A stretch of 64,000 bases of DNA from Fluviicola sp. (GTDB lineage Bacteria > Bacteroidota > Bacteroidia > Flavobacteriales_D > Crocinitomicaceae), in assembly GCF_039596395.1 (NCBI RefSeq), contig NZ_JBCNJT010000001.1:715315-779314 (forward strand), read 5' to 3'. A program made the position numbers and the translations under genes. Positions within the stretch are counted from its first letter, which is position 1. Each line of letters starts with the position of its first letter. Below are positions 7,899 to 58,424 of this stretch, piece after piece. Under the pieces are notes generated by a model. That model searched no databases, was not told where the DNA came from, and saw only the letters and a list, made by a program, of their open reading frames with translations.

Positions 7899-7985
7899 GT
7901 TTAATGTTCAAAGAGTTCAAGCGTTCAATGTCTCAATAGCGACCGGTATCAATTTTGAACTTTTTAAACCATTGACCTTTTGAAC
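7899..7985. repeat. Palindromic element made of GTTCAA(AA)-type tandem units
   Basis: Left arm GTTTAAT GTTCAAAGA GTTCAAGC GTTCAAT; right arm TTTTGAAC TTTTTAAAC CATTGACC TTTTGAAC. Confidence 0.75.
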
Positions 7986-7998
7986 GAAAACAAGAAAT

Positions 7999-10452
7999 TT
8001 GGAACATCCGAAAAGATTTACGCAAACTACGCGCGGAAAGCTGATCCTGGCTTTCGGATTGGTGCTGTGTATTTCCCTGCTTACCTGGATCGTTAACCGG
8101 AGTGCCTTTGACCGGATCAACACGGTGGTAGAAGATCTGACCAAACCGAATCACCGGCTGGAAGCCCTGAACGACCTGCAAATGGAACTGAGCCGTCTGA
8201 ATGATTTTTACCGGGCTGAAGCTTTACAGAACAAATACAATCCTTCGGAAGAATACGGGATAAGAGTGGGTCAGATTTCAGAACGATTAAAGCAATTGAA
8301 AGATTCTTTTGCGGATAACCCGGACCAGGTGCAGCGATTGGTTGAGGTCGATTCAATTTTTACCAAACGGAATAAATTGTTTGAGAAGTATTTGAAGATC
8401 CGTTACAATTATATCAACAGCGGATTGGTAGACAGGCAATTTGAGGAACTTGCAGACCAGGTCGACAAGGAAAACCTGAAAGTGGATACCAATGTGGTCA
8501 CTACTGAAAAACAAACAAAAACGTATACTTATTTCGATCCGGTGGTGAAAGAAGAAGTCCCGGTAAAAAAGCGGCGTTTCCGGCGAAGAAAGGAAGAGGT
8601 GGTGATGGAAGCGAAACCATACGTTGTTGTGGAAGAAAAAACGAATGTCCACATTGATACCCTGGCCGTTTCACAGAAAAAAGACAGTATCATCGAAAAT
8701 ATCCGGCTTTCCCTGGATCATGTGGAATCGGAACGGAACACCGGGAGAAAATTCCTTCAGAAACAGGAATTGATCCTCATTAAGAGTAACGAGATTTTGT
8801 TTAATCGCCTTGTGGAAGTAATCGGTGAAGTGAAAAACGAAGAAAGTTTGTACACCGAATTGAGTTCGTCCAGGTCCATACAGATTGCCCGTGATACGAT
8901 TTCCCTGACAAAAATGCTGACACTGGTCTTTGTACTGGTTGCTTTCGTATTGATAGGTTTCATCATCGGGGATGTATCCAAGTTTAATCGTTACCGCAAG
9001 CAGTTGGAGGCATCACGGGAAGAGGCGGAGTTCCACAGTCAGGCGAAACAGCGCTTTCTTTCCAATATGAGTCACGAGATCCGTTCTCCGCTGCAAACAA
9101 TTGTCGGGTACTCGGAATTGATGATGAATGAACCGCAAACCGATAAATCCAAAATCGAAGTGGTTTCGAAAGCATCGGAACATTTGCTGCAGGTTGTCAA
9201 TGAGATCCTGGACTATTCCCGCATCATTTCTTCGAACTTTAAAATAGATGAGAAACCTTTCCAGTTAACGGAAATGATCGATGAGGTGGCCGGTTTTACG
9301 GCTTTTCAGTGTCAGCAGAAGGGAATCCGGTGGAATTTTGACAGGAATGAATTTGAAGCGGAAAAGTCCTGGGTTATTTCAGATGCATTCCGTTTGAAGC
9401 AGATCCTGATCAACATCCTGAGCAACGCGGTGAAATTTACCGAAAAAGGTTCCGTTTCCCTGGAAGTTCAATTGAAAGAAACCGAAAAGAACCTGGATGT
9501 GAACTTCAAAATCCTGGATACCGGGATCGGAATGAGCGCAAAGGACCTGAAAGTGGTTTTCCAGCAATTCGAACAGGCGCGGAATGCACCTATCCAATCC
9601 GGAACGGGTCTGGGATTGAGTATTGTGAAAGAACTGGTGGAAGCGCTTAAAGGCGAAATGAATGTTGGTAGTAGCCTGGGAAAAGGCACGGTCTTTAGTC
9701 TGAACTTTTCCTTTGAAAAGGCAGAAAAAGCAGTGCTTCCGGTTGCCGCAGATGAGCAGGAACACATCGAACTGGATGGAGTATTGTGGGTGGTGGATGA
9801 CGACGCCGCTATTTTGAAACTGTGCGAACAATTATTGAAGCAGAAAAAGCTCCGGTACCGGTGTTTTAATGATCCGAAAGAATTACTGGATGCAACCTGG
9901 GATGAAGATGTTAAATTTGTTTACGCCGATGTGCGCATGCCCGGAATGAGTGGGATAGAATTGTGCTCCAGGTTGAAAAAACGCGGACATACGGATGTGA
10001 AGATTGTTGCGCTCACCGCCCAGGTTCTCCCGGAAGAAAAAGAGATGTTCCTGCAAAGCGGATTTGACGGAATTGTGTTGAAACCATTCAAAAGCCGCGA
10101 GTTCTATGCACCGATCCGTGAAATGGAAAAAAAGGATTCCGAGTTTGATTTTTCATCTTTGCGCCAAATGATCGCGGACGAAAACGACTTCCGTGAGATC
10201 AAACTTCAATTCGTGTCTGATTCGAATGCGGATCTGGTAGCTATGAACAAAGCCCTGGAGGAGGAAAATACACGCGATTTATTGTTACTGGTACACCGTT
10301 TAGCCGGAAGGTTCGGACAAATGGGGTCGAAAAAGTTAGCACCAAAACTGAGAGAGCTGGAAGTACAATTGAAAAATACCGCAAAAGGGATTGTATTTTA
10401 CGAGGTCAAAGAAATTATCCCGCAGCTGGAAAAAGCTTTAAACAATCTTTAG
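7999..10452 (+). CDS. Hybrid sensor histidine kinase (TM-periplasmic-TM, HisKA, HATPase, REC, Hpt)
   Basis: FLSNMSHEIRSPL, NILSNAVKFT, DTGIGM, GTGLGLSIV, VVDDD...ADVRMP...KP, VHRLAG; TTG start. Confidence 0.93.
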   Translation: MEHPKRFTQTTRGKLILAFGLVLCISLLTWIVNRSAFDRINTVVEDLTKPNHRLEALNDLQMELSRLNDFYRAEALQNKYNPSEEYGIRVGQISERLKQLKDSFADNPDQVQRLVEVDSIFTKRNKLFEKYLKIRYNYINSGLVDRQFEELADQVDKENLKVDTNVVTTEKQTKTYTYFDPVVKEEVPVKKRRFRRRKEEVVMEAKPYVVVEEKTNVHIDTLAVSQKKDSIIENIRLSLDHVESERNTGRKFLQKQELILIKSNEILFNRLVEVIGEVKNEESLYTELSSSRSIQIARDTISLTKMLTLVFVLVAFVLIGFIIGDVSKFNRYRKQLEASREEAEFHSQAKQRFLSNMSHEIRSPLQTIVGYSELMMNEPQTDKSKIEVVSKASEHLLQVVNEILDYSRIISSNFKIDEKPFQLTEMIDEVAGFTAFQCQQKGIRWNFDRNEFEAEKSWVISDAFRLKQILINILSNAVKFTEKGSVSLEVQLKETEKNLDVNFKILDTGIGMSAKDLKVVFQQFEQARNAPIQSGTGLGLSIVKELVEALKGEMNVGSSLGKGTVFSLNFSFEKAEKAVLPVAADEQEHIELDGVLWVVDDDAAILKLCEQLLKQKKLRYRCFNDPKELLDATWDEDVKFVYADVRMPGMSGIELCSRLKKRGHTDVKIVALTAQVLPEEKEMFLQSGFDGIVLKPFKSREFYAPIREMEKKDSEFDFSSLRQMIADENDFREIKLQFVSDSNADLVAMNKALEEENTRDLLLLVHRLAGRFGQMGSKKLAPKLRELEVQLKNTAKGIVFYEVKEIIPQLEKALNNL

Positions 10453-10532
10453 TTCGTGGATATTTTTGATGACTTTTTTCTTATATTTATTTAGTAGCGA
10501 TCTTGAAATTTTTATCCCGAAAATAGCGTTAA

Positions 10533-11325
10533 ATGAATTTAGATAATCCACAAAGCTTTATATTTTATACTACTAGTGAAGGTAAAGATAATGTTCAAGT
10601 TTATGTTGATGAAAGCGGACAAACTGTTTGGATGACCCAAAGAGGTATGTCTGAGGTTTTTGGATGTTCCACAGATAATATATCCCTTCACTTAAAGAAT
10701 ATTTTTAATGTAGGAGAATTGAATATTGATGAAGTTACCGAGGAATCCTCGGTAACTGGTGCTGACGGTAAAAATTATAAAACCAAACTGTATAATCTTG
10801 ATGCTATTATTTCAGTTGGTTATCGGGTAAATTCTCAGAATGCGACAAGATTTCGAATATGGGCTACAGGTATTTTAAAGGAATACCTGGTGAAAGGATT
10901 CGCAATGGATGATGAGCGATTAAAGCAAGGTAAATCGTTATTTGACAAAGATTATTTTGATGAGTTATTAGAGCGGATAAAGGAAATTCGCGCTTCTGAA
11001 AGAAGGTTCTATCAAAAAATTACAGATATCTATGCCCAATGTAGTGTAGATTACAATCCAAATTCACCTGTTACGCAGCAGTTTTATGCTACAGTACAGA
11101 ATAAATTAGAATTTGCGATCACTAAGCAAACGGCAGCAGAAAACATTTCAACAACCAGTTTAATGAATATGAACTTTTAATGATGCCGGGGCTGTCAGTA
11201 AATTGGTTGCTAAGAAAATTGCAGAAGAAGAATATGAAAAATTCAGAATAGTTCAGGATTCAAATTTCACTTCCGATTTTGACAAATTGATCGAAGGAAT
11301 CAATTCAGGAAAGAAAAACCAATAA
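10533..11325 (+). pseudogene. rhuM: RhuM-family DNA-binding protein, internally deleted and frameshifted
   Basis: WMTQRGMSEVF, YNLDAIISVGYRVNS, ATRFRIWAT, FAMDDERLK, IRASERRFYQK; ORF stops at 11180, but QFNEYELL (from 11156) and NDAGAVSK...FTSDFDK* (11179..11325) continue in other frames. Confidence 0.85.
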
Positions 11326-11336
11326 ACGATTTAAAT

Positions 11337-12671
11337 TCACTCTAACTCGTACTTCTCCATCTTGCTGTAAAGCGTTTTCCGGTCGATATTTAAAAGCTGA
11401 GCGGCCTTGGTTTTATTATACCGGGTTTGAATAAGCGCATTCAAAATCAGTTCCCGTTCGTTGGTTTCCTGTACCAGTTTCAAATCGTTCGGATTGCTGG
11501 TCTGAGCACGGGAGATCATTTCTTCCGGCAGTAGTTCGGTACCGATGACATCGTCCTTGGACAACAAAACGGAGCGTTTGATGACATTGCGCAACTCGCG
11601 CAGGTTTCCCGGCCAATCGTATTTTTTGAATACCTGGATAATCTCCGGAGTAAGCCTTTTCACCGAGCGATCCAGTTCCTGGTTTGCCTGGTCTACAAAA
11701 TACTGAATGAATAATTCCAGGTCAACACCTCTTTCGCGCAGTGCTGGCATCTGGATCTTGAATTCATTGATCCGGTGATAAATATCTTCCCGGAAATTTC
11801 CCGATCCGATTTCCTGAAGAAGGTTTTCATTCGTTGCACTGATCAACCGGATGTTGATAGGAATACTTCTCCCGCTTCCAACCGGTTCAATGGTCCGTTC
11901 CTGGAGTGTGCGCAGTAATTTGATCTGTACGTCGTAACCCAGGTTCCCGATTTCATCCAGGAACAACGTACCTCCGTTTGCTTTTTCCATCAATCCTACC
12001 TTGTCCTGCAAAGCACCTGTAAATGCACCTTTGGCATGACCGAATAATTCACTTGCAGCCAGTTCTTTGGAGAGAACCCCGCAATCAACGGCTATAAAAG
12101 GACCGCCGGATCGTTTACTTTGGTTGTGGATGGAACGCGCAATGTGTTCTTTCCCTGTTCCGCTTTCCCCGATAATCATCACCGACATTTCTGTAGGAGC
12201 AACCAGGTCTACGTATTCATACAATCTCCTGGCAACTTCACTTTCTCCCTTGATGAATGATTGCGCGTTTTTCGGTTTTGATTCCTGTTTTTTAGAAGGT
12301 TCTTTTTTGTCAAGTGCCGATTCGATCACCAGGAGTAATTCGTCCGGGTTAATGGGTTTGATAATGTACTCAAACGCACCCGATTGAATGGATTTTACAG
12401 CTGTGCGTACATCATCGAAACTGGTAATAATCACAACCGGTAATACGGGAAATTGAGTTCCCATTTTGGCAATGAGTTCCAATCCGATTCCATCCGGTAA
12501 GCGGTAATCCAATAGTAACAAATCGAATTTTTCCGAACTCAGTAATTGCTGTCCGGACTGCAGGTTTGATGCAGAACTTACCTGGTATCCTTTCTTTGTG
12601 AGAAAAGTAGTTACGATTTTTGCAAACGTCGGATCGTCTTCGATTAACAGGATTTTAGTATCCAAAGCCAC
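11337..12671 (-). CDS. Sigma54-dependent response regulator (NtrC/ZraR/AtoC family)
   Basis: REC (EDD...LDYRLPD), GESGTGKE, GAFTGA, FLDEIG, DWPGNLREL, Fis-type HTH NKTKAAQLLNIDRKTLY; GTG start. Confidence 0.95.
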   Translation of the reverse strand: MALDTKILLIEDDPTFAKIVTTFLTKKGYQVSSASNLQSGQQLLSSEKFDLLLLDYRLPDGIGLELIAKMGTQFPVLPVVIITSFDDVRTAVKSIQSGAFEYIIKPINPDELLLVIESALDKKEPSKKQESKPKNAQSFIKGESEVARRLYEYVDLVAPTEMSVMIIGESGTGKEHIARSIHNQSKRSGGPFIAVDCGVLSKELAASELFGHAKGAFTGALQDKVGLMEKANGGTLFLDEIGNLGYDVQIKLLRTLQERTIEPVGSGRSIPINIRLISATNENLLQEIGSGNFREDIYHRINEFKIQMPALRERGVDLELFIQYFVDQANQELDRSVKRLTPEIIQVFKKYDWPGNLRELRNVIKRSVLLSKDDVIGTELLPEEMISRAQTSNPNDLKLVQETNERELILNALIQTRYNKTKAAQLLNIDRKTLYSKMEKYELE

Positions 12672-12694
12672 ATTTTTGAGATTACTAATTAAAA

Positions 12695-12730
12695 ATAAGA
12701 AAGGTCACGCAGAAGCATGACCTTTCTTAT
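12695..12730 (-). terminator. Intrinsic terminator
   Basis: ATAAGAAAGGTCA / TGACCTTTCTTAT 13-bp stem; U-tract on minus strand. Confidence 0.85.
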
Positions 12731-12750
12731 GATTATTTAAGGAAAAAAGC

Positions 12751-13077
12751 TTACTTGATCACTGTTCCGTCCTCTTTGAATTTCACAACGTTTAATTCCG
12801 CTTTGGTGTTTGATAATTCTACTTCATAATATGGCTTTTCAGCTTTTACGATGTATGCTTGTTTAGCAGTCCATCCCTGAAAAGAGTCTTCTGTTAGTGC
12901 TTTGCGAACTGCAGCAGGCAATTCTTCCAATTTGATTTTCACACGGTCAGGATTGTTTGCTTCTGTTGCCGCAACTTCGGTTGCCTGAGTTGTTTTGTTT
13001 TCTGTTTGAGCCGGAGCCTGAGCGTTAGCAAATGCCGTTGTTGTAATTGCGATTGCTGCGATGATCAACTTTTTCAT
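12751..13077 (-). CDS. Small secreted PepSY-like protein
   Basis: Signal peptide (AFANA), low-complexity linker, ELPAAVRKAL...YYEVEL...VKFKEDG. Confidence 0.75.
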   Translation of the reverse strand: MKKLIIAAIAITTTAFANAQAPAQTENKTTQATEVAATEANNPDRVKIKLEELPAAVRKALTEDSFQGWTAKQAYIVKAEKPYYEVELSNTKAELNVVKFKEDGTVIK

Positions 13078-13112
13078 GGTATTTATTTTTAAATGATTTC
13101 TGCAGAGACACT

Positions 13113-13128
13113 AAGAAATATGATACCA
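13113..13128 (-). promoter_or_regulatory. Candidate sigma54 -24/-12 promoter
   Basis: Minus strand TGGTATCATATTTCTT; GG at the -24 position, but -12 is TTCT rather than TTGC. Confidence 0.3.
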
Positions 13129-13251
13129 CTTTTTGGATTCAAAATTCAAAAAGTAAAAATTCAAAAGCTGAAGCCCTTTAAAAATAGGCGATTGGGAAAG
13201 TTTAGATTGAATTTTCTAACCAATTACGCACCTGTGCCAGAACTGAAAAAG

Positions 13252-13288
13252 TGTGGAATGTTTCCACAAAACGAGGGGTTGTTCTACA
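13252..13288. promoter_or_regulatory. Candidate tandem enhancer (UAS) sites
   Basis: Perfect TGTGGAA-tgt-TTCCACA (13252-13268) plus a 10/17 copy 20 bp away (13272-13288). Confidence 0.55.
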
Positions 13289-13307
13289 ATTGGCCAAAGG
13301 TATCGGG

Positions 13308-13769
13308 TTAGTATGCGATTGGAGCATCCAGTTTTAATTGCTGAATGACTTTGTTTTTGAGCGGAAAAAGGGAAGCAAAATAAAGAACGCCGATTCCTGT
13401 GAGCAGGATGAAAAAGGTATTGGTGGTCAATACGTAGCAAACAATGGCAAAGATGAGCGATGCATCTACCAGCCCCATTTGGATAATACGGGTACTCGTA
13501 TAAGCTTTGATCAGTTTCAGCGGATCGGTTTCGTTGTGCACTTTTGCCAGCATTGCTTTACGCATGAAAATACTGGTTGAAACTGAAATGACCATAAAAA
13601 TGGGAGCGATCAGTTGGAACAGTTCATTGATTTCTGTTTGCTGACTTCCGGGTTCAACGATAATACTCATAGCTGTCAGAAAGCTAAGAATGCCAAACAG
13701 GAATGCTCCGAAGATGATGCGGATCAGGGTGATGCTTCCGGTAAGTCTGCGCAGAATTTCTGGGTTCAT
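13308..13769 (-). CDS. Hypothetical 4-TM membrane protein
   Basis: 153 aa with four hydrophobic segments. Confidence 0.8.
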   Translation of the reverse strand: MNPEILRRLTGSITLIRIIFGAFLFGILSFLTAMSIIVEPGSQQTEINELFQLIAPIFMVISVSTSIFMRKAMLAKVHNETDPLKLIKAYTSTRIIQMGLVDASLIFAIVCYVLTTNTFFILLTGIGVLYFASLFPLKNKVIQQLKLDAPIAY

Positions 13770-13780
13770 AGGTTTTGAAT

Positions 13781-13809
13781 AAAAAAAAGCCCCGGCGAAA
13801 AACCGGGGC
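13781..13809 (-). terminator. Intrinsic terminator
   Basis: GCCCCGG-N7-CCGGGGC with A8 tract (U8 on minus strand). Confidence 0.9.
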
Positions 13810-13817
13810 CGGATTAT

Positions 13818-14213
13818 TTAGAATGGTAAATCGTCATCATCGCTAGGTGCAGTGGAAGCACTTGGAGTAGCAATCGGATCAAGGTTCATTGCTGTTGGTC
13901 CTCCTGCCGGAATTCCACCTCCCATGGAGCCGGATCCCACTTTCTCAATTCTCCATGCTTCCAGGGTGTTGAAGTATTTCACTTCTCCCTGCGGGCTTGT
14001 CCATTCGCGTCCTCTCAGGTTGAAGGACACTTCAATTTGGTCTTGTGTGTTGAATCCATCAATCAAGCTGCACTTATCCTGTGTCAACTGGAACAAGATG
14101 TCCTGAGGATACATACTTGCGTTATCAGTTAAAACAAATTCTCTCTTTGAGAATTTTTCTGATACTTGAACTGTATCATTCTTCACCTTTAAGATTCCGG
14201 ATATTTTAAACAT
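13818..14213 (-). CDS. DUF3127 family protein (OB-fold, SSB-like)
   Basis: FSKREFVLT, YPQDILFQ, VSFNLRGREW, YFNTLEAWRI, C-terminal DDDDLPF. Confidence 0.88.
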   Translation of the reverse strand: MFKISGILKVKNDTVQVSEKFSKREFVLTDNASMYPQDILFQLTQDKCSLIDGFNTQDQIEVSFNLRGREWTSPQGEVKYFNTLEAWRIEKVGSGSMGGGIPAGGPTAMNLDPIATPSASTAPSDDDDLPF

Positions 14214-14235
14214 ATTTCTACGGGTATTTACTATT

Positions 14236-15129
14236 TTAATCGTTAAAAGAGAGCAGGGTCATCCATGCTCCTTCAATATCATTTTTATTAATTAATTCTT
14301 TTGCACGTTCGTGTAAAGCGAGTTCCAGTTTTGCCGGTTCGTCTTCTAAAGTTAGGAATAAATCGCTTAATTCCAATAATTTATATTCGTTGACATCCGT
14401 TTCATTCGGCAATTCCGTAATGCCTGCCAACTGTGCCAGGTCGTTCCCGGACAGGATGATACTGACGCGAATATCTTCCGGGATTTGGTCAAAACCGACT
14501 CCGATGGTTGTAATAGGTTTGGTAACTTCAAACATGGAAGCTTCATTGGCATGACAATACCAGTTTCCGCCCATTCGTGCAACGAGGTTGATCTTCTTTT
14601 GATCAATTGTGCCGTCTTCCGCCAGGATTTCCTCGTGGATATGAATTTTGGTTACTTCACAGATTACCAGGTTTCCTGCGCCGCCCTGGTCTCCCAGTTC
14701 TTTTACTTCAAGCACTTTGCATTCGAACTGAACAGGAGCTTCCAAAACGCGCATCGGTTTTACCGTATCGGATTTTACCGGCGTAAGGCCTGACTTTACG
14801 AATTCATCCACTTCCGGTCCGTAAGGGGAACTGCTCAGGCTCATCTGGTGCAGGATATCCATATTCACAATGTTAATAACCACTTCCGGGATATTTTTGA
14901 CATTGTTGTAGGTGTCCTTTGTTGTATTCGTTCTTCCGTTTCTTGCCGGAGAGAATATCAGGATTGGCGGAGCAGCCGAAAAAACATTGAAAAAACTAAA
15001 CGGCGATAAATTATTGACTCCGTTTTCATCGATTGTTGAAGCAAATGCGATGGGACGCGGGCCAATGGCTCCAAGTAAATATCCATGGAGTTTGGGTACG
15101 GGAAGTTCTTTCGGGTCGAGCGTTAACAT
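14236..15129 (-). CDS. Flavin reductase-like FMN-binding protein (DIM6/NTAB family)
   Basis: PRPIAFAST, NNLSPFSFFN, KDTYNN, EAPVQFECK, VARMGGNWY. Confidence 0.9.
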   Translation of the reverse strand: MLTLDPKELPVPKLHGYLLGAIGPRPIAFASTIDENGVNNLSPFSFFNVFSAAPPILIFSPARNGRTNTTKDTYNNVKNIPEVVINIVNMDILHQMSLSSSPYGPEVDEFVKSGLTPVKSDTVKPMRVLEAPVQFECKVLEVKELGDQGGAGNLVICEVTKIHIHEEILAEDGTIDQKKINLVARMGGNWYCHANEASMFEVTKPITTIGVGFDQIPEDIRVSIILSGNDLAQLAGITELPNETDVNEYKLLELSDLFLTLEDEPAKLELALHERAKELINKNDIEGAWMTLLSFND

Positions 15130-15144
15130 GCTTGCAATTTTCTA

Positions 15145-15152
15145 CAAAAGTA
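15145..15152 (-). promoter_or_regulatory. Bacteroidota -7 promoter element
   Basis: TACTTTTG 15 nt upstream of ATG 15129. Confidence 0.6.
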
Positions 15153-15233
15153 CCAAAATCAAAGCGGTCTTTTGAAGTCAGAAGCGAGATTTAATTAACA
15201 AAATGACTCGCTAACGATGAAAACAGAAAACGA

Positions 15234-19510: not shown

Positions 19511-19578
19511 TAAGATTTAGGATCTTAAGACTTTAATTCGTCTTAGTATTTTGATGTCCTAATATCCCAATGTCCAAT
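19511..19578. repeat. Palindromic element made of ~8-nt units
   Basis: TAAGATT TAGGATCT TAAGACTT facing GTCTTAGT ATTTTGAT GTCCTAAT ATCCCAAT GTCCAAT. Confidence 0.65.
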
Positions 19579-19644: not shown

Positions 19645-20250
19645 TTAGCGGTTGTTTCTTTTTTTAGAAACATCTCTCAGGCGGATCCGTTTTGGAACGA
19701 TGTATTTTGTCAGCCTGCTATTGGTAGGATAGGACCTGTTTTTCGTGAGATTGTTAGCGATAATTGCCACCAGAAGCAGGATTAAAACACCGGAAAGAAC
19801 GGGCGATAAAACATACATGAATCCCAGTGCTTTGACTTTCGGAGTTCCGATAACAGCAATCAGTGCCGTTGCTCCGCCGGGCGGATGCAATGTTTTGGTC
19901 ATTTGCATGGCAACGATGGATAGACTTACTGCAAGCGGGGCAGAAATCCAAAGCGGATCAGGAACTAATTTAAACACGCAGACGCCGATGAAAGCAGAAA
20001 TGACGTGTCCACCCACCAGGTTTCTCGGTTGTGCGAGCGGACTTTGGATTGCTCCGTAAATCAACACGCTGCTTGCCCCGAATGATCCGATCAGGAAAAT
20101 GTTTTCCAGTTTGTCCAATGATTGCGACTGGGTCCATGCAATTAGCCCGATCCCGAAGAAGGAACCGATAAACGTCCAGAAATGTTCCCTAACATCCACC
20201 AGTGTTTCTTTGTAGAGGACATACCGGACTTTTCTTATGGATTTTTTCAT
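19645..20250 (-). CDS. HPP family membrane protein
   Basis: GSFGASSVL, SPLAQPRNLVGGH, TLHPPGGATAL. Confidence 0.93.
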   Translation of the reverse strand: MKKSIRKVRYVLYKETLVDVREHFWTFIGSFFGIGLIAWTQSQSLDKLENIFLIGSFGASSVLIYGAIQSPLAQPRNLVGGHVISAFIGVCVFKLVPDPLWISAPLAVSLSIVAMQMTKTLHPPGGATALIAVIGTPKVKALGFMYVLSPVLSGVLILLLVAIIANNLTKNRSYPTNSRLTKYIVPKRIRLRDVSKKRNNR

Positions 20251-20720: not shown

Positions 20721-20786
20721 AAAAGTTCAAAAGTTCAAAAGTTCAAAAGTTTCAGCCGCGGCTGATTCAAAGTTCAAAAGGTTCGA
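20721..20786. repeat. AAAAGTTC tandem array with central TCAGCCGCGGCTGA palindrome
   Basis: AAAAGTTC x3, palindrome at 20752-20765, then TTCAAAGTTCAAAAGGTTCG. Confidence 0.8.
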
Positions 20787-20787
20787 C

Positions 20788-21485: not shown

Positions 21486-21573
21486 TCCCTCTTTGAAGGG
21501 GGATTAAGGGGATGGTCACCCCTCTCTGTCTCTCCCGCCGACTTCCTGTCGGGACAGGCTCCTCAAAAGGAGA
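21486..21573. repeat. Composite REP-like element with nested 27-nt palindromic insert
   Basis: TCCCTCTTTGAAGGGGGATTAAGGGG...ACCCCTCTCTGTCTC[TCCCGCCGACTTCCTGTCGGGACAGGC]TCCTCAAAAGGAGA. Confidence 0.7.
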
Positions 21574-21668
21574 AGTTTAGAAATTCGCCTCTCCATTGTA
21601 ATCGTAACCAACAATTAATATTCACCTAACGTCAAAACTCCGGAATATGGGGAATTTTGCGGCAAAAA

Positions 21669-22295
21669 ATGGAACTTTTTATCAGTGTTTTCGCCGCTTT
21701 ATTCTCTGTTTTGAACCCTTTGGGAACGGTTCCCGTTTTTGTTGGACTGACCAGGGACGACACCAAGCACCACCGGGATAAAACCTCTCTCTGGACTTCC
21801 GTCAATGTGTGTATAATTTTATTGATCTCTTTTTTTGCGGGGAAGTATGTGTTGAATTTTTTCGGGATCAGTATTAACTCCCTGCGTGTTGCCGGCGGAT
21901 TGATCATTGCTACTTCGGGTTTTGCCTTGCTTACCGGATCTTTTACCAAGCACAAAGGAATGAAGAAAGCGAGTGTGCAGGAAGATCTGCAAACACGCTC
22001 GGAAGTTTCTTTAACGCCGCTGGCAATTCCAATGCTGGCCGGTCCGGGATCTATTTCGTTGCTGATTACTTACAACCAAACGTTTGATAACAAAGAGCAG
22101 CACCTGCTTTCGGTTTGTGCGATTATTGCTGTTTGCCTGGTGATTTACCTGATCTTAAGAACGTCACACTTTATTGTGAAGGCACTTGGTGCTTCAGGGA
22201 TTAATGCCATTTCTCGGATCATCGGGTTTATTGTGATTGCGATAGGTGTGGAGTATGTTTCTTCGGCGGTGCAGGAGATTTTGAAAATTAAATAA
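21669..22295 (+). CDS. MarC family membrane protein
   Basis: FSVLNPLG, SLRVAGGLI, PLAIPMLAGPGSI, SRIIGFIVIAIGVE. Confidence 0.92.
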   Translation: MELFISVFAALFSVLNPLGTVPVFVGLTRDDTKHHRDKTSLWTSVNVCIILLISFFAGKYVLNFFGISINSLRVAGGLIIATSGFALLTGSFTKHKGMKKASVQEDLQTRSEVSLTPLAIPMLAGPGSISLLITYNQTFDNKEQHLLSVCAIIAVCLVIYLILRTSHFIVKALGASGINAISRIIGFIVIAIGVEYVSSAVQEILKIK

Positions 22296-22345
22296 TTGCG
22301 AATTGCGAATAATATTTAATTAGGTATTCGGAATTAGCAATTATT
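22291..22345. repeat. 20-bp inverted repeat of heptamer units between convergent genes
   Basis: AATAATTGCGAATTGCGAAT / ATTCGGAATTAGCAATTATT (18/20). Confidence 0.8.
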
Positions 22346-23582: not shown

Positions 23583-23849
23583 AGTCTAGTTTTAGTAGAG
23601 TGAATATACAGATTCTTTGACTTAGTTGGGTGTTTATTTGATGAATTGTTCGTAATTCAGTGATATTGTTAGTTGATAATTAAACCACAAAGGAACATAG
23701 GACACATAGAATTCTAAAAATGCGACCCAGCAGGCGATTGAAGTTAAAGGTGTTTCAAGCGGATAATTGTTGTTTCGCTCCGCTCACGTTCTTTTATCAC
23801 CTAAAAAAACAAAGCGCATAGCTTTTTAAGGATTTACATATTTGTGTAG

Positions 23850-24000
23850 TTGAGAGACGGTTTCTGAGTTTAGAAATCAGACTTTAAAGGGAAGGTTGAG
23901 TCAAGTCAAAGCCGTCTTTTCACTTTTTCTCATCTGAAAGGCAGGACCTTCGCTATACCGTAATCCCAGTCCTGGCAGGGTTTTCCGGTGGGCAATTTGA
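23850..24000. ncRNA. Candidate structured RNA / cis-element
   Basis: Stem AGACGGTTT/AAGCCGTCT (23855-23917) with inner hairpins and a U-run; second stem CAGGAC/GTCCTG (23942-23974) with possible ACCG/CGGT pseudoknot. Confidence 0.35.
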
Positions 24001-24049
24001 ATTGTTAAGAATACGGTGAATTGTTACAGGAATAACGTTTTGATACTAT

Positions 24050-24093
24050 ACCCATACTTGACCTATGCTTTACCTATACTTGACCCATACTTG
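24050..24093. repeat. 11-bp tandem repeat x4
   Basis: ACCCATACTTG ACCTATGCTTT ACCTATACTTG ACCCATACTTG. Confidence 0.9.
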
Positions 24094-24198
24094 ATGGTGA
24101 AGAAGTGTTTTTGAGGAATTTCTTTATTGCGACCGAATGTAGCAGTTGTGTGTAATTTGATCCCATTTTATGGGGGCATGACGTTGGGCAATATACAC

Positions 24199-24230
24199 AA
24201 AAAAGCCCCGATCAATCCGAACGGGGCTTT
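24199..24230 (-). terminator. Intrinsic terminator
   Basis: AAAGCCCCG-N11-CGGGGCTTT with A-tract. Confidence 0.85.
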
Positions 24231-24249
24231 GAATTTATATTCGAAAAAA

Positions 24250-25640: not shown

Positions 25641-25716
25641 GAATTATCAATTATGAATTACAGAATTATCAAGAGGGATCATTCTTGATCATTCATAATT
25701 GAAAAATTGATAATTC
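25641..25716. repeat. Palindromic element of ATCAATT/ATGAATT heptamers
   Basis: GAATTATCAATTATGAATTACAGAATTATCAAGA ... TCTTGATCATTCATAATTGAAAAATTGATAATTC. Confidence 0.75.
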
Positions 25717-50940: not shown

Positions 50941-50946
50941 CAGACA

Positions 50947-50973
50947 ACAGGCCGGCGATTATCGCCGGCCTGT
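50947..50973. terminator. Bidirectional terminator
   Basis: ACAGGCCGGCGA-TTA-TCGCCGGCCTGT between convergent genes. Confidence 0.88.
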
Positions 50974-50979
50974 TTGTTT

Positions 50980-53286
<2,307 letters not shown>

Positions 53287-54099
53287 TTAAAATAATTTCG
53301 TCTTAAAGATCTTCGGGCGGATGGTGAACTGTTCTTTGGTTTGTTCTTCCCTGCGCCAGAGAATTCCCATGCGTCCCAGATCAACGGAAACATGGAAACG
53401 CGGATCGGAGGAGAGGTATTTCCAGCAATCCCACATGTCTTCGCTCCAGCGGATATCATCCAGGATGAATGCGGTGTTGCTGTGTGTCTGATCGAATAGT
53501 TTGTCGATGTATTCCATGGTGGCTTTCCCGGAGTGATTTCCGTCCAGGAAGACCAGGTCGTATTTCCCGATTGCGGGAAGTTCCAGGAAATCGTCGAAAG
53601 AACTGCAAATGGTTGTAATACCGGAAAGGTTCCAGCTGTCAAACTGCCTGGATGCACGCGATAGAATGGCATCGCAGCCTTCAACGGTAATCAGATGCCC
53701 GGAAGGATTACCGGACTTTAAATGAATGGAGCCTGTTCCGATGGATGTTCCCAGTTCCAGCATCAATGCGGGTTTGTAGTGGTTTGCCAGTTTCCATAGA
53801 ATGTCGCCGTAAATGCCTTTGCTGCTGGCGTTTTTTGCAAGTTCTGAAACGGAACGGCTTGTCCCGGCCATGCGGGAAGTCTTTCCCATTTGTTTGGATC
53901 CTGCACCTAAATCGATTATTTTAAATTGTTCCGTATCCTTTTTGACTTTTTGTAGCCATTTTTTTCGTGCAGAGAGAAAATTTTTATCCACTTTTGTCGT
54001 TAGACAGTTGTCGACAAAGTCGAATACAAAGGGAGAATGAATGCCATGTCTGCCTTTAGATTTGAGTAAAAATCCGAAAATTGATTTGGAATTTTGCAT
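53287..54099 (-). CDS. O-methyltransferase-like class I SAM methyltransferase
   Basis: HGIHSPFVF, DLGAGS, LELGTSIG, FLDGNH, ILDDIRWS. Confidence 0.9.
   Translation of the reverse strand: MQNSKSIFGFLLKSKGRHGIHSPFVFDFVDNCLTTKVDKNFLSARKKWLQKVKKDTEQFKIIDLGAGSKQMGKTSRMAGTSRSVSELAKNASSKGIYGDILWKLANHYKPALMLELGTSIGTGSIHLKSGNPSGHLITVEGCDAILSRASRQFDSWNLSGITTICSSFDDFLELPAIGKYDLVFLDGNHSGKATMEYIDKLFDQTHSNTAFILDDIRWSEDMWDCWKYLSSDPRFHVSVDLGRMGILWRREEQTKEQFTIRPKIFKTKLF
53857..53877 (-). mobile_element. Candidate 21-nt in-frame mini-palindromic insertion
   Basis: TCCCGCATGGCCGGGACAAGC = codons 75-81 (SRMAGTS); same termini as the 21533-21559 insert. Confidence 0.55.
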
Positions 54100-54132
54100 G
54101 ACACAAAGAAACGAAAAAACGCTACAGGAAGC

Positions 54133-55524
54133 ATGCTTATGCTAAAAACTACAATAGAAATACAATCGGAACGCCTGCGGGCTCCGCAACCGGCATTAAA
54201 CCTGGTTTCTGCCTGTAAAATACAGGAAGGGATCATTGCTTTGAGCGACGAGAAAATTGCGGATCTGGCGCAAACATTTTATCAATCGACCAAAAAGATT
54301 TCGGTCTTTATTCCGGCATCCGGTTCGGGATCACGTATGTTCCATTTCCTGTTTGAATTTCTGGATAACCCGAATGAAAGCAATAGCGGATATGTAGAGC
54401 GTTTCCTGACACATATTGAAGATTTTGCGTTTTTCTACCAGTTCCCCGGCTCTATTCAAAAAGCTTTGCGAAACAGGAGCATGGACCTGGATGCTTTCGT
54501 GTCATTTATCCTGAACAATAAAGGCTACGGGTTGGCGCATCTTCCGAAAGGGTTGATCCCGTTCCATAAAAACGGGCCTTTCTTATTGTGCCCGATCCAG
54601 GAACATGTGGTTCAGGGGCAATTGCTGAACCAAAATGCGTGTTCGTTCCATTTTACGATCCAGCCCAAATTCCAGGAGTACATTCAACGGCAGCTGGAGT
54701 TTCTCGAAGGAATGACATCCCGGAAATTCGATGTGGATTTCTCGGTACAGAATATTGAAACCAACGCGGTTGCTTTTGACGATAATTACCAGCCGATCCT
54801 GAATCCGGAAGGCGATTTGCTGACCAGGCCGGCCGGACATGGTGCTTTACTGGAAAATTTCGGCCAATTGGATGCAGATCTGATTTTCATCAAGAACATC
54901 GATAATATTCAGCATTACAACCACTCGGAAACGGCAATCGAAACACAGCGCATGCTGGGCGGTTTATTCCTGGAAGTGCAGGAAGAAGTGCAGAAACTGA
55001 TCGCTGATTTTTCGGAAGAGGCATGGAATGATTTCAACAGCGAATATCAATTATTCCATGAATCGGTGAATGGTTTGTCGCACCGGGAGAAACTGGAGTT
55101 GCTGAAAAGACCGCTTCGCATTTGCGGAATGGTGCGCAATGAAGGCCAGCCGGGAGGAGGTCCGTTCTGGGTTGAGAATAACGGCGAAATCACGAAGCAA
55201 ATTGTGGAAAAAGCGCAAATCAATCCTAAAAGCGACCAGGTGCGGGTGATGATCCAGTCTTCGCATTTTAACCCGGTAATCATGGTTTGCCAGGGAAAAA
55301 ACAACGATGGTTCGAAAATCGACCTGGATGCATTTAAAGACGAGAATGCGTATTTCAAAGTGAGTAAATCACATAATGGGCAATCCATTCATTTTGTGGA
55401 GCTTCCGGGGCTTTGGAACGGTTCGATGGCGAAATGGAATACGGTTTTCGTAGAAGTGCCTAGCAAAACGTTCAGCCCGGTGAAATCCATTCTGGATTTA
55501 TTGGATAAGGCGCATCAACCCTGA
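54133..55524 (+). CDS. DUF4301 family protein
   Basis: FIPASGSGSRMF, LPKGL, RPAGHGALL, FIKNIDN, EGQPGGGPFW, LPGLWNGSMA; start uncertain (54094-54139). Confidence 0.88.
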   Translation: MLMLKTTIEIQSERLRAPQPALNLVSACKIQEGIIALSDEKIADLAQTFYQSTKKISVFIPASGSGSRMFHFLFEFLDNPNESNSGYVERFLTHIEDFAFFYQFPGSIQKALRNRSMDLDAFVSFILNNKGYGLAHLPKGLIPFHKNGPFLLCPIQEHVVQGQLLNQNACSFHFTIQPKFQEYIQRQLEFLEGMTSRKFDVDFSVQNIETNAVAFDDNYQPILNPEGDLLTRPAGHGALLENFGQLDADLIFIKNIDNIQHYNHSETAIETQRMLGGLFLEVQEEVQKLIADFSEEAWNDFNSEYQLFHESVNGLSHREKLELLKRPLRICGMVRNEGQPGGGPFWVENNGEITKQIVEKAQINPKSDQVRVMIQSSHFNPVIMVCQGKNNDGSKIDLDAFKDENAYFKVSKSHNGQSIHFVELPGLWNGSMAKWNTVFVEVPSKTFSPVKSILDLLDKAHQP

Positions 55525-55528
55525 TTTG

Positions 55529-55609
55529 ATGTAAAATGTTGAAATGTCAAAAGTCAAAAGTTAAAAAGGTCTCCTTTTTCTTGTTTACATTTCCCTTTTT
55601 ACATTTGAC
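55529..55609. repeat. Palindromic element of TGTCAAAA/GTAAAA-type units
   Basis: ATGTAAAA TGTTGAAA TGTCAAAA GTCAAAA GTTAAAAA facing TTTACAT...TTTTTACATTTGAC, between convergent genes. Confidence 0.6.
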
Positions 55610-56530
55610 TTAATATAGTTTTTGTCGTTTCAATAAATACTTCACCAATACATCCTGGATCGGGTCTTTGATGTCGATTGCATAAAAATCTACGTGGTAT
55701 TGCGTGCATTTTAAACTCACCTCGTTGAAGTAGCGATTGATTTCCGTGGTGTATTTTTCCTTGATCTCAGCCGGTTGCAGTTTCATTTTTTCACCCGTTT
55801 CCATGTCGATGAGGTTGATCGGGTTGTGGCCCAGTTCAAAATCGATTTCCGTAGATTTGTCCATCACGTGGAAAAGGACCACTTCGTGTTTATTATGCTT
55901 CATGTGCTGAATGCTTTGCATGAATTCATCCAGGCGTGAAGGATCGTCCAGCAAATCCGTGAAAATAACAATCAGGCTTCTTTTGTGACACAATTCCGCA
56001 ACATCGTGCAGGCTGGAAATGGTTTCCGTTAATTTCGGGTCAACAGGCTGGTATTCGTGCAGCTGTTTTTCCATTTCGTGCAGCAGGAAACGGTGATGAG
56101 CACCCGATGATTTTGCCGGAGTATGCAGGAACAGTTTGTTGTGGAACAGGGAAAGTCCCACGGCATCGCGTTGTCTTTTCAGTAATTCGGATAAAGATGC
56201 TGCGGCAAGTACCGAAAATTCCAGTTTCGAAAGCGTATTTTTCCCGCTGTAGTACATGGAAGAAGAAGTGTCGACCACCATTTGGCAGCGCAGGTTGGTT
56301 TCTTCCTCGTATTTTTTGGTGAACATTTTTTCCGACCGGCCATACAATTTCCAGTCGATGTGGCGCGTAGATTCTCCGGGATTGTACAAACGGTGCTCTG
56401 CGAATTCCACGGAAAAACCATGGAACGGACTTTTGTGCATTCCGGTAATGAAACCTTCTACGACCTGTTTTGCAAGTAATTCAAGATTGCCGAATTGGGC
56501 CAGCTGGTCCTTTTGGATGGTAGTCAACAT
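55610..56530 (-). CDS. DUF58 family (vWA-like, MoxR-associated) protein
   Basis: GMHKSPFHGFSVEFAEHR, RHIDWK, EEETNL, VDTSSSM, QRDAVGL. Confidence 0.93.
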   Translation of the reverse strand: MLTTIQKDQLAQFGNLELLAKQVVEGFITGMHKSPFHGFSVEFAEHRLYNPGESTRHIDWKLYGRSEKMFTKKYEEETNLRCQMVVDTSSSMYYSGKNTLSKLEFSVLAAASLSELLKRQRDAVGLSLFHNKLFLHTPAKSSGAHHRFLLHEMEKQLHEYQPVDPKLTETISSLHDVAELCHKRSLIVIFTDLLDDPSRLDEFMQSIQHMKHNKHEVVLFHVMDKSTEIDFELGHNPINLIDMETGEKMKLQPAEIKEKYTTEINRYFNEVSLKCTQYHVDFYAIDIKDPIQDVLVKYLLKRQKLY

Positions 56531-56580
56531 GCTTCGAAAATACGTATAAATGTGATTGATTGCGGGAAGTTTGACGAATT

Positions 56581-57522
56581 TTAAGAAAGAACTTCCGTTT
56601 CGGTATCGATTACCAGTTCTGCTTCTTTTTTACTCTTTCTGCCGGCCCGGAAAACAGTGCCTGCAATGACTCCGGAAATCACCAGGCAAACACCGATTAA
56701 TGAAGCTAATTCCAGCTTTTCATCAAAAATAAACCAGCCGGAAAGCAAAGCGTAGATCGCGCCGATGTATTGGAAAGGTGCAACGACTGCTGTATTTGCC
56801 GACAGGAATGCGCGGGTCATACAAACTTGTGCTATTTGGGTAAACACCCCGATAGTCAATAGAATCAGCCATTCGATTCCCTGTGGAAAGGTGAAATCAA
56901 ACAAACACCAGATTCCTGTCAACGGAAGTGCCAGCATGGGAAAGTAAACCACGATATTGATAGTTTCTTCGGTTTCTTTCAGTTTTGAAATGGCATTGTA
57001 GGCAATTCCGGAGAGAACAGCAGAAAGGATTCCCATTCCCATCCAGAAAAGATCCGCATTTTGCCCGCTGAATCCGCCTGAAAGCCCGTTGAGCCCGATG
57101 AAAACAACCCCGAGGAAAGCAATCAGGCTGCTGAAGTACTGCATTTTGCTGACTTTTTCACTGAACAGGCGAGAAGCAATCAAAACGGTGAAAATAGGAG
57201 AAAGGTATTGCAAGGTAGAGGCGATTGCCAGAGGAAGTTTGTGCAGCGTGAAAAAGAAAATCGTCAGTGCGAGCATTCCGGCAGTTCCTCTTAAAAGAAG
57301 CCATCTGCGGTTGTTTCCAAGCAAGGGAAGTCCGCGGTATCTGATAATTGCCGCGCTGATCAGGAATGAAACCAGGCTTCTGAAAAATACCAATTCGTGT
57401 GCAGGATATTTTTGAAGGTGAGGAATGAGATCGTTATCCGGATTGCCGAGCAATTTCACGAAAAAGTTGATGACGAAAAAAGCCATTCCGGAAAGAATGA
57501 TGTAGACAATTCCTTTGATCAT
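56581..57522 (-). CDS. DMT/EamA family transporter
   Basis: About 10 TM helices, ELVFFRS, LQYLSPIFT, APFQY; start likely MIKGIV (57522). Confidence 0.92.
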   Translation of the reverse strand: MIKGIVYIILSGMAFFVINFFVKLLGNPDNDLIPHLQKYPAHELVFFRSLVSFLISAAIIRYRGLPLLGNNRRWLLLRGTAGMLALTIFFFTLHKLPLAIASTLQYLSPIFTVLIASRLFSEKVSKMQYFSSLIAFLGVVFIGLNGLSGGFSGQNADLFWMGMGILSAVLSGIAYNAISKLKETEETINIVVYFPMLALPLTGIWCLFDFTFPQGIEWLILLTIGVFTQIAQVCMTRAFLSANTAVVAPFQYIGAIYALLSGWFIFDEKLELASLIGVCLVISGVIAGTVFRAGRKSKKEAELVIDTETEVLS

Positions 57523-57526
57523 ATCA

Positions 57527-57534
57527 CAAAAGTA
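57527..57534 (-). promoter_or_regulatory. -7 promoter element 4 nt from start codon
   Basis: TACTTTTG-TGAT-ATG. Confidence 0.55.
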
Positions 57535-57627
57535 CACGGTATGTTCAATTTCCGTTCCTATTTGTTCAATTTCATGAACCTGTCTGGAAATACTTTCGTA
57601 GTTTTAGAAGTATAAATGAAGGTGTTT

Positions 57628-58341
57628 ATGAAAAAGCTTCTGATACTGTTATTCGTTTTGAATTTGTTTTCATATTCCAATGCACAAATTGAAAATGACA
57701 AATGGAGTATAACCGGTGAGTTGATGCTGCCTGCCGGATTGGGAAATAAAATGTTCAAGAATTATCTGAACGGATTGGTATACGCCCATCCGAAAATTCA
57801 GTACAAACCGTTTAAACACTGGTATGTGGCTTTCGGACCGAAATACATGTATTACAAAGTGAACCAGTTCCGTATCCCGTTTGAACCGGGAGTCAGTGAC
57901 GATTCTGTTTCCAATCACCAGAAAGTATATTCCATGACCGGCGGAATGCACGTACTTGGAGGCGATATTGAACTGGGATGGACGAGTTGGGTCGGGCCGC
58001 GTTTAGGCCTGGAATTCGGTGTGCGCGGTGGAATTGCGCAGCATTGGTTCAATACTTCCGGCACGCGTGCTTACGGAAAACAGGAAGTAGTAGCAGCTTA
58101 TGTTGAACCGCTGATCTCTATCGTACTGGCATCCGATGAAGCGGTTGCTTACCGCTGGATAGTGGGATACAATTTTACCGGATACAAATTTACCGGCAGC
58201 CGCATCGGTTCCACGACTTCGGGCGGATATTCCGAGAAGGATCTGAGGGGCCCGACACAATCCGTGTTTGTCGGCTTTGCCATTTCCCTATATTTCAATA
58301 ATCAACGTTCAGACGTGTTCCTGGATGAGCCGGCAGAGTAG
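57628..58341 (+). CDS. Hypothetical outer-membrane beta-barrel protein
   Basis: Signal peptide MKKLLILLFVLNLFSYSNAQ; alternating beta-strands. Confidence 0.75.
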   Translation: MKKLLILLFVLNLFSYSNAQIENDKWSITGELMLPAGLGNKMFKNYLNGLVYAHPKIQYKPFKHWYVAFGPKYMYYKVNQFRIPFEPGVSDDSVSNHQKVYSMTGGMHVLGGDIELGWTSWVGPRLGLEFGVRGGIAQHWFNTSGTRAYGKQEVVAAYVEPLISIVLASDEAVAYRWIVGYNFTGYKFTGSRIGSTTSGGYSEKDLRGPTQSVFVGFAISLYFNNQRSDVFLDEPAE

Positions 58342-58345
58342 CAAA

Positions 58346-58424
58346 GTTTAATGGTTCAAAAGTTTAAAAAGGTCAAAAAACTGTGAATTCCTTTTGAACG
58401 ATTAAACAAATTTATCTTTTGAAC
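58346..58424. repeat. Palindromic element of GTTCAAAA units (same family as 7899-7985)
   Basis: GTTTAATG GTTCAAAA GTTTAAAAA GGTCAAAA ... TTTTGAAC GATTAAAC ... TTTTGAAC. Confidence 0.75.

Follow-up and report, generated by a model that had tools for sequence, protein, structure and literature searches.

Intergenic palindromes of inverted tandem units in Fluviicola are probably gene-less shells of a foldback-cassette family

In the genome of a Fluviicola sp. (Bacteroidota; RefSeq assembly GCF_039596395.1, designated G000; 4.64 Mb, 43% GC, 5 contigs, of which C1, C2, C3 and C5 are referred to below), we analyzed a stretch of 64,000 nt (contig NZ_JBCNJT010000001.1, positions 715,315 to 779,314, that is, C1:715315-779314; hereafter the window), in which seven intergenic gaps hold palindromes made of degenerate short tandem units, mostly arranged as two inverted arms. 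We consider it likely that the palindromes at all seven loci represent gene-less shells belonging to a large foldback-cassette family, the design of which is like that of the open reading frame (ORF)-bearing intervening sequences (IVS) of 23S rRNA. Arrays of the same unit families and polarity enclose every four-helix-bundle (4HB) and GxxExxY locus found in this genome, and in related genomes such cassettes occur in a gutted state with both arms kept.

Inverted tandem-unit arrays in the window and across the genome

All seven loci read as a preliminary description of the window had claimed, and the contact with stop codons that it had reported for several of them extends to all: each lies directly 3′ of a stop codon, in a tandem or a convergent gap. 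The two-armed architecture, which had been described for most of them, was found at six of the seven, each with a left arm of degenerate 7-9-nt units, a short core and a right arm of reverse-complement units; the exception is 20721-20786, where GTTCAAAAG-type units stand in a single orientation on either side of a nested GC mini-palindrome.

To place these loci in the genome, arrays with periods 7, 8 and 9 were called in intergenic DNA by Tandem Repeats Finder, which gave 188, 175 and 143 arrays, compared with 20.8, 24.1 and 26.0 in ten dinucleotide-preserving shuffles, a 6-9 fold excess; shuffled AT-rich intergenic DNA therefore does not reproduce the observed frequency. On a rough, self-made gene map (3770 genes, 89.5% coding) with 2423 intergenic gaps of at least 30 nt, 416 gaps contain an array of period 7-9, and within the window this holds for 9 of the 35 such gaps. 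Among period-7 arrays 68% are intergenic, intergenic DNA being 10.5% of the genome. The arrays are also paired with inverted copies of themselves: for 203 of 473, two or more inverted copies of the array's own unit lie no farther than 100 nt away, compared with 50 when the reversed unit and 65 when the complemented unit was searched over the same range as a control.

A fixed polarity was observed as well. Clusters of at least three GTTCAA/TTGAAC words number 158, and none was found for the control word AACTTG/CAAGTT; of the intergenic GTTCAA clusters, 107 run forward-then-reverse (F-R) and 0 reverse-then-forward. Similarly, GTTCAAA is followed by TTTGAAC within 90 nt 310 times and the opposite order occurs 12 times, while AATTATC followed by GATAATT was counted 103 times and its opposite 15 times.

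The units had been taken to differ from locus to locus, but each of them belongs to a family that recurs genome-wide, with 41 arrays for AATTATC, 31 each for AAAAGTTC and AAATGTTC, 28 for AAAATTG, 19 for AATTCGC, and further families. The AATTATC family comprises 56 F-R copies that share a common non-periodic consensus, (T)AATTATCAATTATGAATGAnnTAATTATCAAG - variable loop - CTTGATAATT..CATTCATAATTGATAATT, which indicates a dispersed repeat family rather than independent products of slippage. As for position, elements in tandem gaps begin at a median of 6 nt past the stop codon vs 38 nt before the next start codon (closer to the stop in 63 elements and to the start in 14), and for the AATTATC elements these medians are 5.5 and 42 nt. 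F-R GTTCAA elements occupy 5.6% of tandem, 8.2% of convergent and 2.3% of divergent gaps.

The arms had further been described as matched, and ordinary slippage had been dismissed on that ground. In fact, they are commonly unmatched in copy number or spacer, and often one arm is a perfect array of 5-13 units, which is read as young, and the other is short and degenerate. That the arms are so often unequal indicates that each arm expands by itself, and each arm gains and loses units independently. The dismissal of slippage was partly wrong, since independent slippage in each arm of an already existing inverted repeat suffices; replication slippage is consistent with the changes in copy number and may be their mechanism.

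With regard to phylogenetic range, 8 of the 25 genomes sampled from the genus contain three consecutive GTTCAAAAG units, and the 16 other families of the order had none, so that this unit is lineage-specific. Other 7-8-nt arrays, several of them as inverted pairs, were seen at loci of Flavobacterium, Pedobacter, Dyadobacter and Sphingobacteriales.

Small-gene cassettes and their remnants in related genomes

The preliminary description had pointed to small 4HB or GxxExxY genes as often flanked by such arrays in Bacteroidota, and this link was borne out throughout the genome. All six 4HB genes (PF05635/TIGR02436, which we take to be the family of the 23S rRNA IVS proteins that also includes Avd of diversity-generating retroelements) lie between inverted arrays, and all seven TIGR04256 (GxxExxY) hits, of which three are intact, two carry one stop codon and two are short remnants, are bracketed in the same way. 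The arrays at these 13 loci are of the same unit families and polarity as those of the gene-less palindromes, and at 9 of the 13 the inverted similarity of the flanks lies above the 97th percentile of random gene flanks. Units bordering 4HB genes include GTTCAAA, AATTATC, AATTCAAA and TAAGA/CAGGA. The GxxExxY arms consist of CACATAGG-like or related units, those at C2:330126 being complementary at 26 of 26 positions, and a conserved promoter-like stretch precedes the start codon at the GxxExxY loci. Array pairs 150-3000 nt apart mostly proved to be neighbouring separate elements, but their inspection exposed the CACATAGG pairs around GxxExxY genes. In a genome-wide screen for genes with inverted 7-mers common to both flanks, direct sharing equalled inverted sharing; this screen is uninformative because many genes have a complete palindrome on either side. 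A Flavobacterium locus, too, has a small gene exactly between a (GTTTCAA)n array and an inverted (TTGAAAC)n array.

Orthologous gaps were then compared among up to 36 Fluviicola genomes, with approximately 20 relatives for each of the seven window sites (L-numbers below denote orthologous loci in these relatives). The states found were no element, a filled cassette, a pseudogene, a gutted cassette with both arms, one-unit stubs and another repeat family; one and the same host gap may thus be empty, filled, gutted or held by a different repeat family in sister species. The preliminary description had looked to such gaps for polymorphism and for filled versions: presence/absence and turnover of families were found at the window sites, all seven of which are polymorphic, while filled versions and their gutted derivatives exist at other sites, as follows.

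The gap between coxI and ruvB is filled in four genomes, and the window's own genome carries a pseudogene there. In L062, the closest relative by RuvB (99% identity), and in L073, both arms remain around an interior of 60-110 nt that includes a promoter stub and a 3′ hairpin stub. One or two units remain in L069, L071 and L076, different repeat families are nested inside in L067, L075 and L077, and distant species have a GC hairpin only, without arrays. In L070 (genome G024), one of the filled four, the GxxExxY gene lies reversed between the same arms relative to L061, L063 and L064, which is the expected product of recombination between the arms.

The asnS-rpoN gap is filled in 12 genomes, and the protein identities of 55-82% point to vertical descent. 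Its right array occurs in two unit variants, ATTTGAAC in 4-13 copies or CTTTTGAAC in 5-7 copies, and in L097, L099 and L103 the gene is lost with one-arm stubs remaining. The gap between two aldehyde dehydrogenase genes (ALDH gap) is filled in 17 of 30 genomes. Both of its arms are of the AATTATC type in the clade of the window's genome and of the AATTGAAAA/ATGTAAAA type in distant clades, which indicates concerted change, the unit sequence drifting along lineages in the left and the right arm at once. In L195, the gene is gutted to codons 1-22 and 104-124 with both arms kept, and 12 genomes have a GC-rich CCCCC..GGGGG element in place of the interior, several of them with AATTATC stubs left.

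These gutted cassettes, which retain a promoter stub or gene fragments, give the direction of change as from filled to shell. Shells can thus arise by deletion of the interior with both arms kept, as observed at two sites outside the seven window loci, the coxI-ruvB and ALDH gaps. Of the two origins suggested in the preliminary description, a non-autonomous family is therefore upheld by the gutted intermediates with both arms (L062, L073 and L195) and by the dispersed AATTATC family with its common consensus, and empty sites of a mobile cassette system are disfavoured, since the shells resemble deletion products and not unoccupied targets.

The window loci and other repeats at the same sites

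The coordinates of the window features and the units of the 4HB cassettes are collected in Table 1.

Table 1. Features of the window (window positions) and 4HB cassettes of the same genome (contig positions)
Feature	Position	Strand	Details
Gene-less foldback, GTTCAA family	7899..7985		C1:723220; pattern FFFRR; left arm GTTCAAAGA GTTCAAGC GTTCAATG, right arm TTTTGAAC..CCTTTTGAAC
Gene-less foldback, TTTAGGA/TTAAGAC family	19511..19578		RNA fold z -2.4
One-orientation GTTCAAAAG array	20721..20786		4 perfect and 2-3 degenerate units, split by the mini-palindrome
Nested GC mini-palindrome CAGCCGCGGCTG	20753..20764		12 nt, within a GTT/TCAAA unit
Gene-less foldback, AATTGCG/AATTCGC family	22291..22345		Convergent gap; RNA fold z -4.6
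Gene-less foldback, AATTATC family	25641..25716		RNA fold z -6.5
Gene-less foldback, TGTAAAA/GTCAAAAG family	55529..55609		Convergent gap; RNA fold z -2.3
Gene-less foldback, GTTCAA family	58346..58424		RNA fold z -3.2
Short GC hairpin then T run, terminator-like	58425..58450	+	Adjoins the foldback; -10.3 kcal/mol, z -4.2
One-arm array of ATTCGSA units (AATTCGC family)	2062..2093		Divergent gap
One-arm array of AATTCAAAA units	13131..13170		
Stub of GxxExxY-type arm, AACCACAAAGGAACATAGGACACATAG	23685..23712		No matching right arm
4HB cassette, asnS-rpoN			GTTTAAAG/GTTCAAAA with (ATTTGAAC)x13
4HB cassette	C2:475708		(AATTCAAA)x13 with TTTTGAAT
4HB cassette, ALDH site	C2:486975-487485		AATTATC with GATAATT
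4HB cassette, thiS-thiC			TCAGGA/TTAAGA
4HB cassette			CTCATT-type units
4HB cassette			TTTACAT-type units

The genes bordering the seven loci are ordinary chromosomal ones (glycosyltransferase, histidine kinases, HPP, OsmC, MarC, aminotransferase, DinB, DUF4301, DUF58 and TetR), and no association of the arrays with any gene class was found among them. No match was obtained in the window with Rfam at the gathering score.

At the 7899 site, the orthologous gap holds GTTCAA elements with different unit counts in L162, L163, L166, L169, L172 and L173 and nothing in L171. The 19511 element (gap A) is present in 13 of 14 syntenic relatives with coordinated changes between the arms, 3 of 12 predicted pairs having changes on both sides, and its unit type also borders the 4HB gene at C3:418706-419059. 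The 20721 gap holds one-arm arrays of variable size in relatives and is just 4 nt long in L008, L009, L133 and L134. At 22296-22343 (gap C), the AATTGCG element of the window has as its counterpart an AATTATC element (four genomes), an AAATGCA/AAATTCA element (four) or a GC-rich one (one genome), and in two genomes the gap measures just 3-4 nt. The arms at 25641-25716 (gap D) have the same four-unit layout as those of the 4HB cassette of the ALDH site, and relatives have either an AATTATC element or a GTAG-type repetitive extragenic palindrome (REP) at this site. At least six other families are found in the 55529 gap of relatives, which is 10 nt long in L154, and the 58346 site holds the GTTCAA family with different counts, a ACTTCGACTCCGCTCAG-type palindrome or nothing.

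Two of the further arrays in the window relate to cassette arms elsewhere. The ATTCAAAA repeats at 13131-13170 are units of the AATTCAAA family, which forms the left arm (AATTCAAA x13) of the 4HB cassette at C2:475708, and the stub at 23685-23712 resembles in unit style the arms found at C2:330126 and C2:1423110. A tblastn search of the 23583-24249 gap revealed no GxxExxY or 4HB protein remnant, which makes it at most a candidate for a decayed cassette. About 330 nt downstream of this stub, at 24043-24094, lies a separate array of period 11/22 (ATACTTGACCT), and relatives have a CCACGGA...TCCGTGG shell in the gap that holds the stub. Two small genes are present in relatives (L001-L009 compared) and not in the window's genome: one, an ORF measuring about 270 nt, separates HPP from the 19511 palindrome (window 19645-19489 region), and the other, which only some species have, lies between OsmC and HPP (window 20247-20250) and is a CxxC zinc-ribbon-like ORF about 230 nt long.

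Other repeat families were met at these sites. The mini-palindrome (T)CAGCCGCGGCTG(A), 12-14 nt long, occurs with close variants at window 20753-20764, C1:247024, C1:828553, C2:38333, C3:200227 and elsewhere. A loose pattern of its core has 52 matches in the genome, approximately 18 of them within units of GTTCAA-type arrays and the remaining ones mostly in self-complementary, repeat-like flanks. An example within a unit is GTT/T-CAGCCGCGGCTG-A/TTCAAAT, in which TT may be duplicated. The mini-palindrome appears to be a second-order mini-element that has the arrays as its target. A GC-rich CCCCC..GGGGG hairpin family (cctccccctcggtccccctccaaaggggg...) replaces tandem-unit elements or cassette interiors at orthologous sites and was seen at window 21520-21600, in gap C of L001 and L129 and at 12 ALDH-gap loci (e.g. 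L182, L187 and L193). A dispersed palindrome family, ACTTCGACTCCGCTCAGT(C/T)ACC ... GGTGACTGAGCGGAGTCGAAGT, holds the same 3′-end gaps in some Fluviicola species (L143, L145, L149, L152 and L153, at the 55529 and 58346 sites, the sixth and seventh loci). GTAG-type hairpins GTAGGCACGCGATTAATCGCGTGCCTAC stand on both sides of a gene at C5:103455-103971 that resembles REP-associated tyrosine transposases (RAYT), their core CGCGATTAATCGCG occurring 40 times in the genome, and a GTAG-type REP occupies the exact spot of the 25641 shell in L003, L006, L121-L123 and L126.

Proposed life cycle, alternative readings and known systems

In the scheme that we propose, a complete cassette is about 0.5-0.65 kb long: an array of 7-9-nt units on the left is followed by a short promoter-like stretch and one small gene, and the same units return inverted on the right. 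Its cargo is either a 4HB protein of the 23S-rRNA-intervening-sequence/Avd family or a GxxExxY protein with a PD-(D/E)XK fold. Cassettes and shells reside between host genes, typically beginning within a few bases of a stop codon. When co-transcribed with the host gene, the arms may form a long AU-rich stem, as in the rRNA IVS, that would isolate the insert and leave a hairpin on the 3′ end of the upstream mRNA, which would explain why a site right after a stop codon is tolerated. The A-rich-arm-first polarity fits such a stem and would be equally expected from common descent of the terminal inverted repeats. Shells may owe their spread or maintenance to functions supplied in trans or to recombination of one array with another.

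Several observations weigh against this account. Neither a target-site duplication, nor near-identical recent copies, nor a transposase was identified, so that it is from their distribution alone that we infer mobility; in gap C, the comparison of empty with filled versions revealed no clear target duplication, the AT-rich ends merging with TAA/TTA stop codons. In the approximately 20 relatives compared for each, none of the seven window sites contained a cargo gene, and shells outnumber genes by about 30:1 (416 gaps vs 13 loci), which means that most shells are not individually traceable to a gene-bearing copy. Arrays are also present in 11% of divergent gaps. Whereas shells of the AATT type are predicted to fold strongly as RNA (z -4.6 and -6.5), those of the GTTCAA type fold weakly (z -0.8 to -3.2), at some loci no better than shuffles. 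Their arms also often differ from each other in spacer and copy number, and the case for an RNA stem is correspondingly weaker for the GTTCAA family. At 58425-58450, moreover, a separate GC hairpin with a T run follows the shell, which places the 58346 foldback within a 3′ UTR and not as the sole terminator candidate there.

The best-surviving alternative, which we nevertheless consider unlikely, is that the palindromes are 3′-end hairpins selected by the host, acting as AU-rich bidirectional intrinsic terminators or mRNA stabilizers and having arisen in place by slippage and template switching, the 4HB and GxxExxY genes being later guests and the palindromes true empty targets. Their placement right after stop codons, their being commoner in convergent and tandem than in divergent gaps, and the order of an A-rich arm first and a U-rich arm second on either strand would all follow from it. 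By a strict in-house finder (GC hairpin plus T run), classical terminators are rare, found in 6.7% of tandem and 20% of convergent gaps, and convergent gaps with arrays have fewer of them (8.6% vs 20.1%); this scarcity is compatible with a terminator role and with the shell reading alike. Independent local origin, however, does not predict unit families at dozens of loci with a common non-periodic consensus, and the gutted cassettes run from filled to shell. The uneven folds of the GTTCAA type and the separate hairpin at 58425-58450 led us to keep the terminator reading as a rival and not as the main account. The GC hairpins with T runs in gap D (L003 and L006), at first seen as canonical terminators equivalent to the shell, proved to be GTAG-type REPs like those bordering the RAYT-like gene and of one family with them, and that argument for a terminator role was dropped.

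Very improbable, in our view, is that the palindromes are elements like REPs or bacterial interspersed mosaic elements (BIME), moved by a domesticated Y1 transposase (RAYT) and unrelated to the small-gene cassettes. The genome does have a Y1_Tnp ORF at C2:21.3-21.9 kb and the second, RAYT-like gene on C5, and REPs are likewise located at gene 3′ ends and genus-specific. The hairpins bordering the C5 gene are, however, of the different, GC-rich GTAG type, with 18 full copies in the genome, the tandem-unit palindromes are without a GTAG/CGTC tag, and it is the 4HB and GxxExxY loci, all 13 of them, that have tandem-unit arms, neither of the two Y1-like genes being bordered by any.

We would give hardly any credence to the arrays being binding sites (iterons) for a host DNA- or RNA-binding regulator, that is, a matter of gene regulation and not of element biology. 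Many arms do conserve a core of 5-6 nt (GTTCAA, AAGAC) with free spacers, one-arm arrays stand just upstream of start codons (the 20721 locus), and published TAACTGA heptamer arrays have been proposed as protein sites (PMC4679880). Against a regulator, a single genome contains many unit families side by side, sister species that share the flanking genes have unrelated families or nothing in a given gap, and no gene class is tied to the arrays. Chance low-complexity sequence, which would need nothing beyond the AT richness of the gaps, is refuted by the shuffles, by the control word without clusters and by the polarity. An integron attC site, with its R''/L''...L'/R' layout that ends in the core GTTRRRY and its place in cassette arrays beside an integrase, was also considered and rejected, the motif order being opposite (GTT... 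first, ...AAC last) and the elements dispersed singly; no search aimed at an integrase was made.

With about one in six intergenic gaps occupied, elements of this kind are a major unannotated component of Fluviicola genomes, and the sampled loci suggest the same presence in other Bacteroidota. Their tie to two small, selfish-looking gene families without an assigned function would amount to a genomic life cycle of insertion, resident phase, gutting and decay and would extend the rRNA intervening-sequence design to ordinary operons; it may also explain why certain bacterial phyla are so puzzlingly rich in 7-9-nt tandem repeats. In practice, shells will mislead predictors of terminators, small RNAs and repeats, and break short-read assemblies. 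If the cargo proteins recognize their own arrays, they would represent a minimal mobile system of a novel type, from which sequence-specific nucleic-acid binders could be drawn. A wider proposal, which we put forward as speculative and more probably wrong than right, would unite the 4HB and GxxExxY cassettes, the shells, the ORF-bearing and ORF-less rRNA IVS and much of the heptamer load of Bacteroidota and Cyanobacteria, that is, long simple sequence repeats (LSSR) and short tandemly repeated repetitive sequences (STRR), in one unrecognized class of transposase-less mobile elements. The units would be iterons read by a multimeric cargo protein (a four-helix-bundle ring, or a PD-(D/E)XK nuclease homing on the folded arms), shells would be copied or converted in trans, and the RNA stem would make the element harmless in operons.

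No paper linking inverted tandem-unit arms to PF05635 or GxxExxY genes was found in a literature search, and the foldback family is apparently undescribed; its parts nevertheless resemble several known systems. As bidirectional intrinsic terminators do, the shells follow stop codons, often in convergent gaps, and are A-rich at the 5′ and U-rich at the 3′ side on both strands. They differ in having neither a compact GC stem nor an unbroken U tract, their stems being AU-rich and interrupted, and in sharing family-level sequence between loci; the strict finder misses them.

Like REP/BIME elements, they are high-copy, lineage-specific extragenic palindromes after genes, and REPs hold the very same gap as a shell in sister species (gap D). 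REPs and their RAYT transposases are defined by GTAG/CGTC-tagged palindromes (PMC3733652), whereas the shells are untagged, AT-rich and longer, have arms of tandem sub-repeats and go with 4HB/GxxExxY genes instead of a Y1 transposase, the GTAG REPs being a separate family here.

Cyanobacterial STRR are heptamer tandem repeats. TAACTGA heptamer arrays are known from Beggiatoaceae, Cyanobacteria and Bacteroidetes, and other heptamer arrays have been noted in Flavobacteriia (PMC4679880). LSSR of bacteria belong to the same kind of repeat (Mrazek et al. 2007, as cited in PMC4679880). The present arrays are likewise intergenic and 7 nt in period, with a sporadic phylogeny and a copy number that varies between relatives. 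The TAACTGA, LSSR and STRR repeats, however, are described as direct arrays linked to start codons or polymerase slippage, and neither the paired inverted architecture nor the small-gene link is known from those descriptions.

Miniature inverted-repeat transposable elements (MITE) are similar in being short, multi-copy and gene-less, with terminal inverted repeats, in being polymorphic between relatives, and in their relation to rarer gene-bearing copies through internal deletion. The present elements differ in that the gene-bearing copies encode only a 4HB or GxxExxY protein and no recognizable transposase, that no clear target-site duplication was seen, and that the inverted repeats are internally tandem with changing copy number. 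Drosophila foldback (FB) transposons have long inverted terminal repeats made of short tandem sub-repeats, and as here their arms are unequal and most copies are without a coding interior while a few have one; being eukaryotic, much larger and of other sub-repeat sizes, they provide an architectural analogy only.

The closest design is that of the ORF-bearing IVS of 23S rRNA, known from Leptospira and Coxiella, which carry an S23p/PF05635 ORF, whose gene-less versions are plain extended hairpins, and which are removed from a 23S rRNA helix by RNase III. Common to both are a long stem of terminal inverted repeats with a PF05635 four-helix-bundle gene in its loop, the existence of ORF-less versions, and an element tolerated inside an abundant transcript. 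The Fluviicola elements differ in lying between protein-coding genes and not in rRNA helices, in having arms that are arrays of 7-9-nt sub-repeats, in sharing their design with a second, unrelated cargo, GxxExxY, and in occurring as gene-less copies in hundreds per genome.

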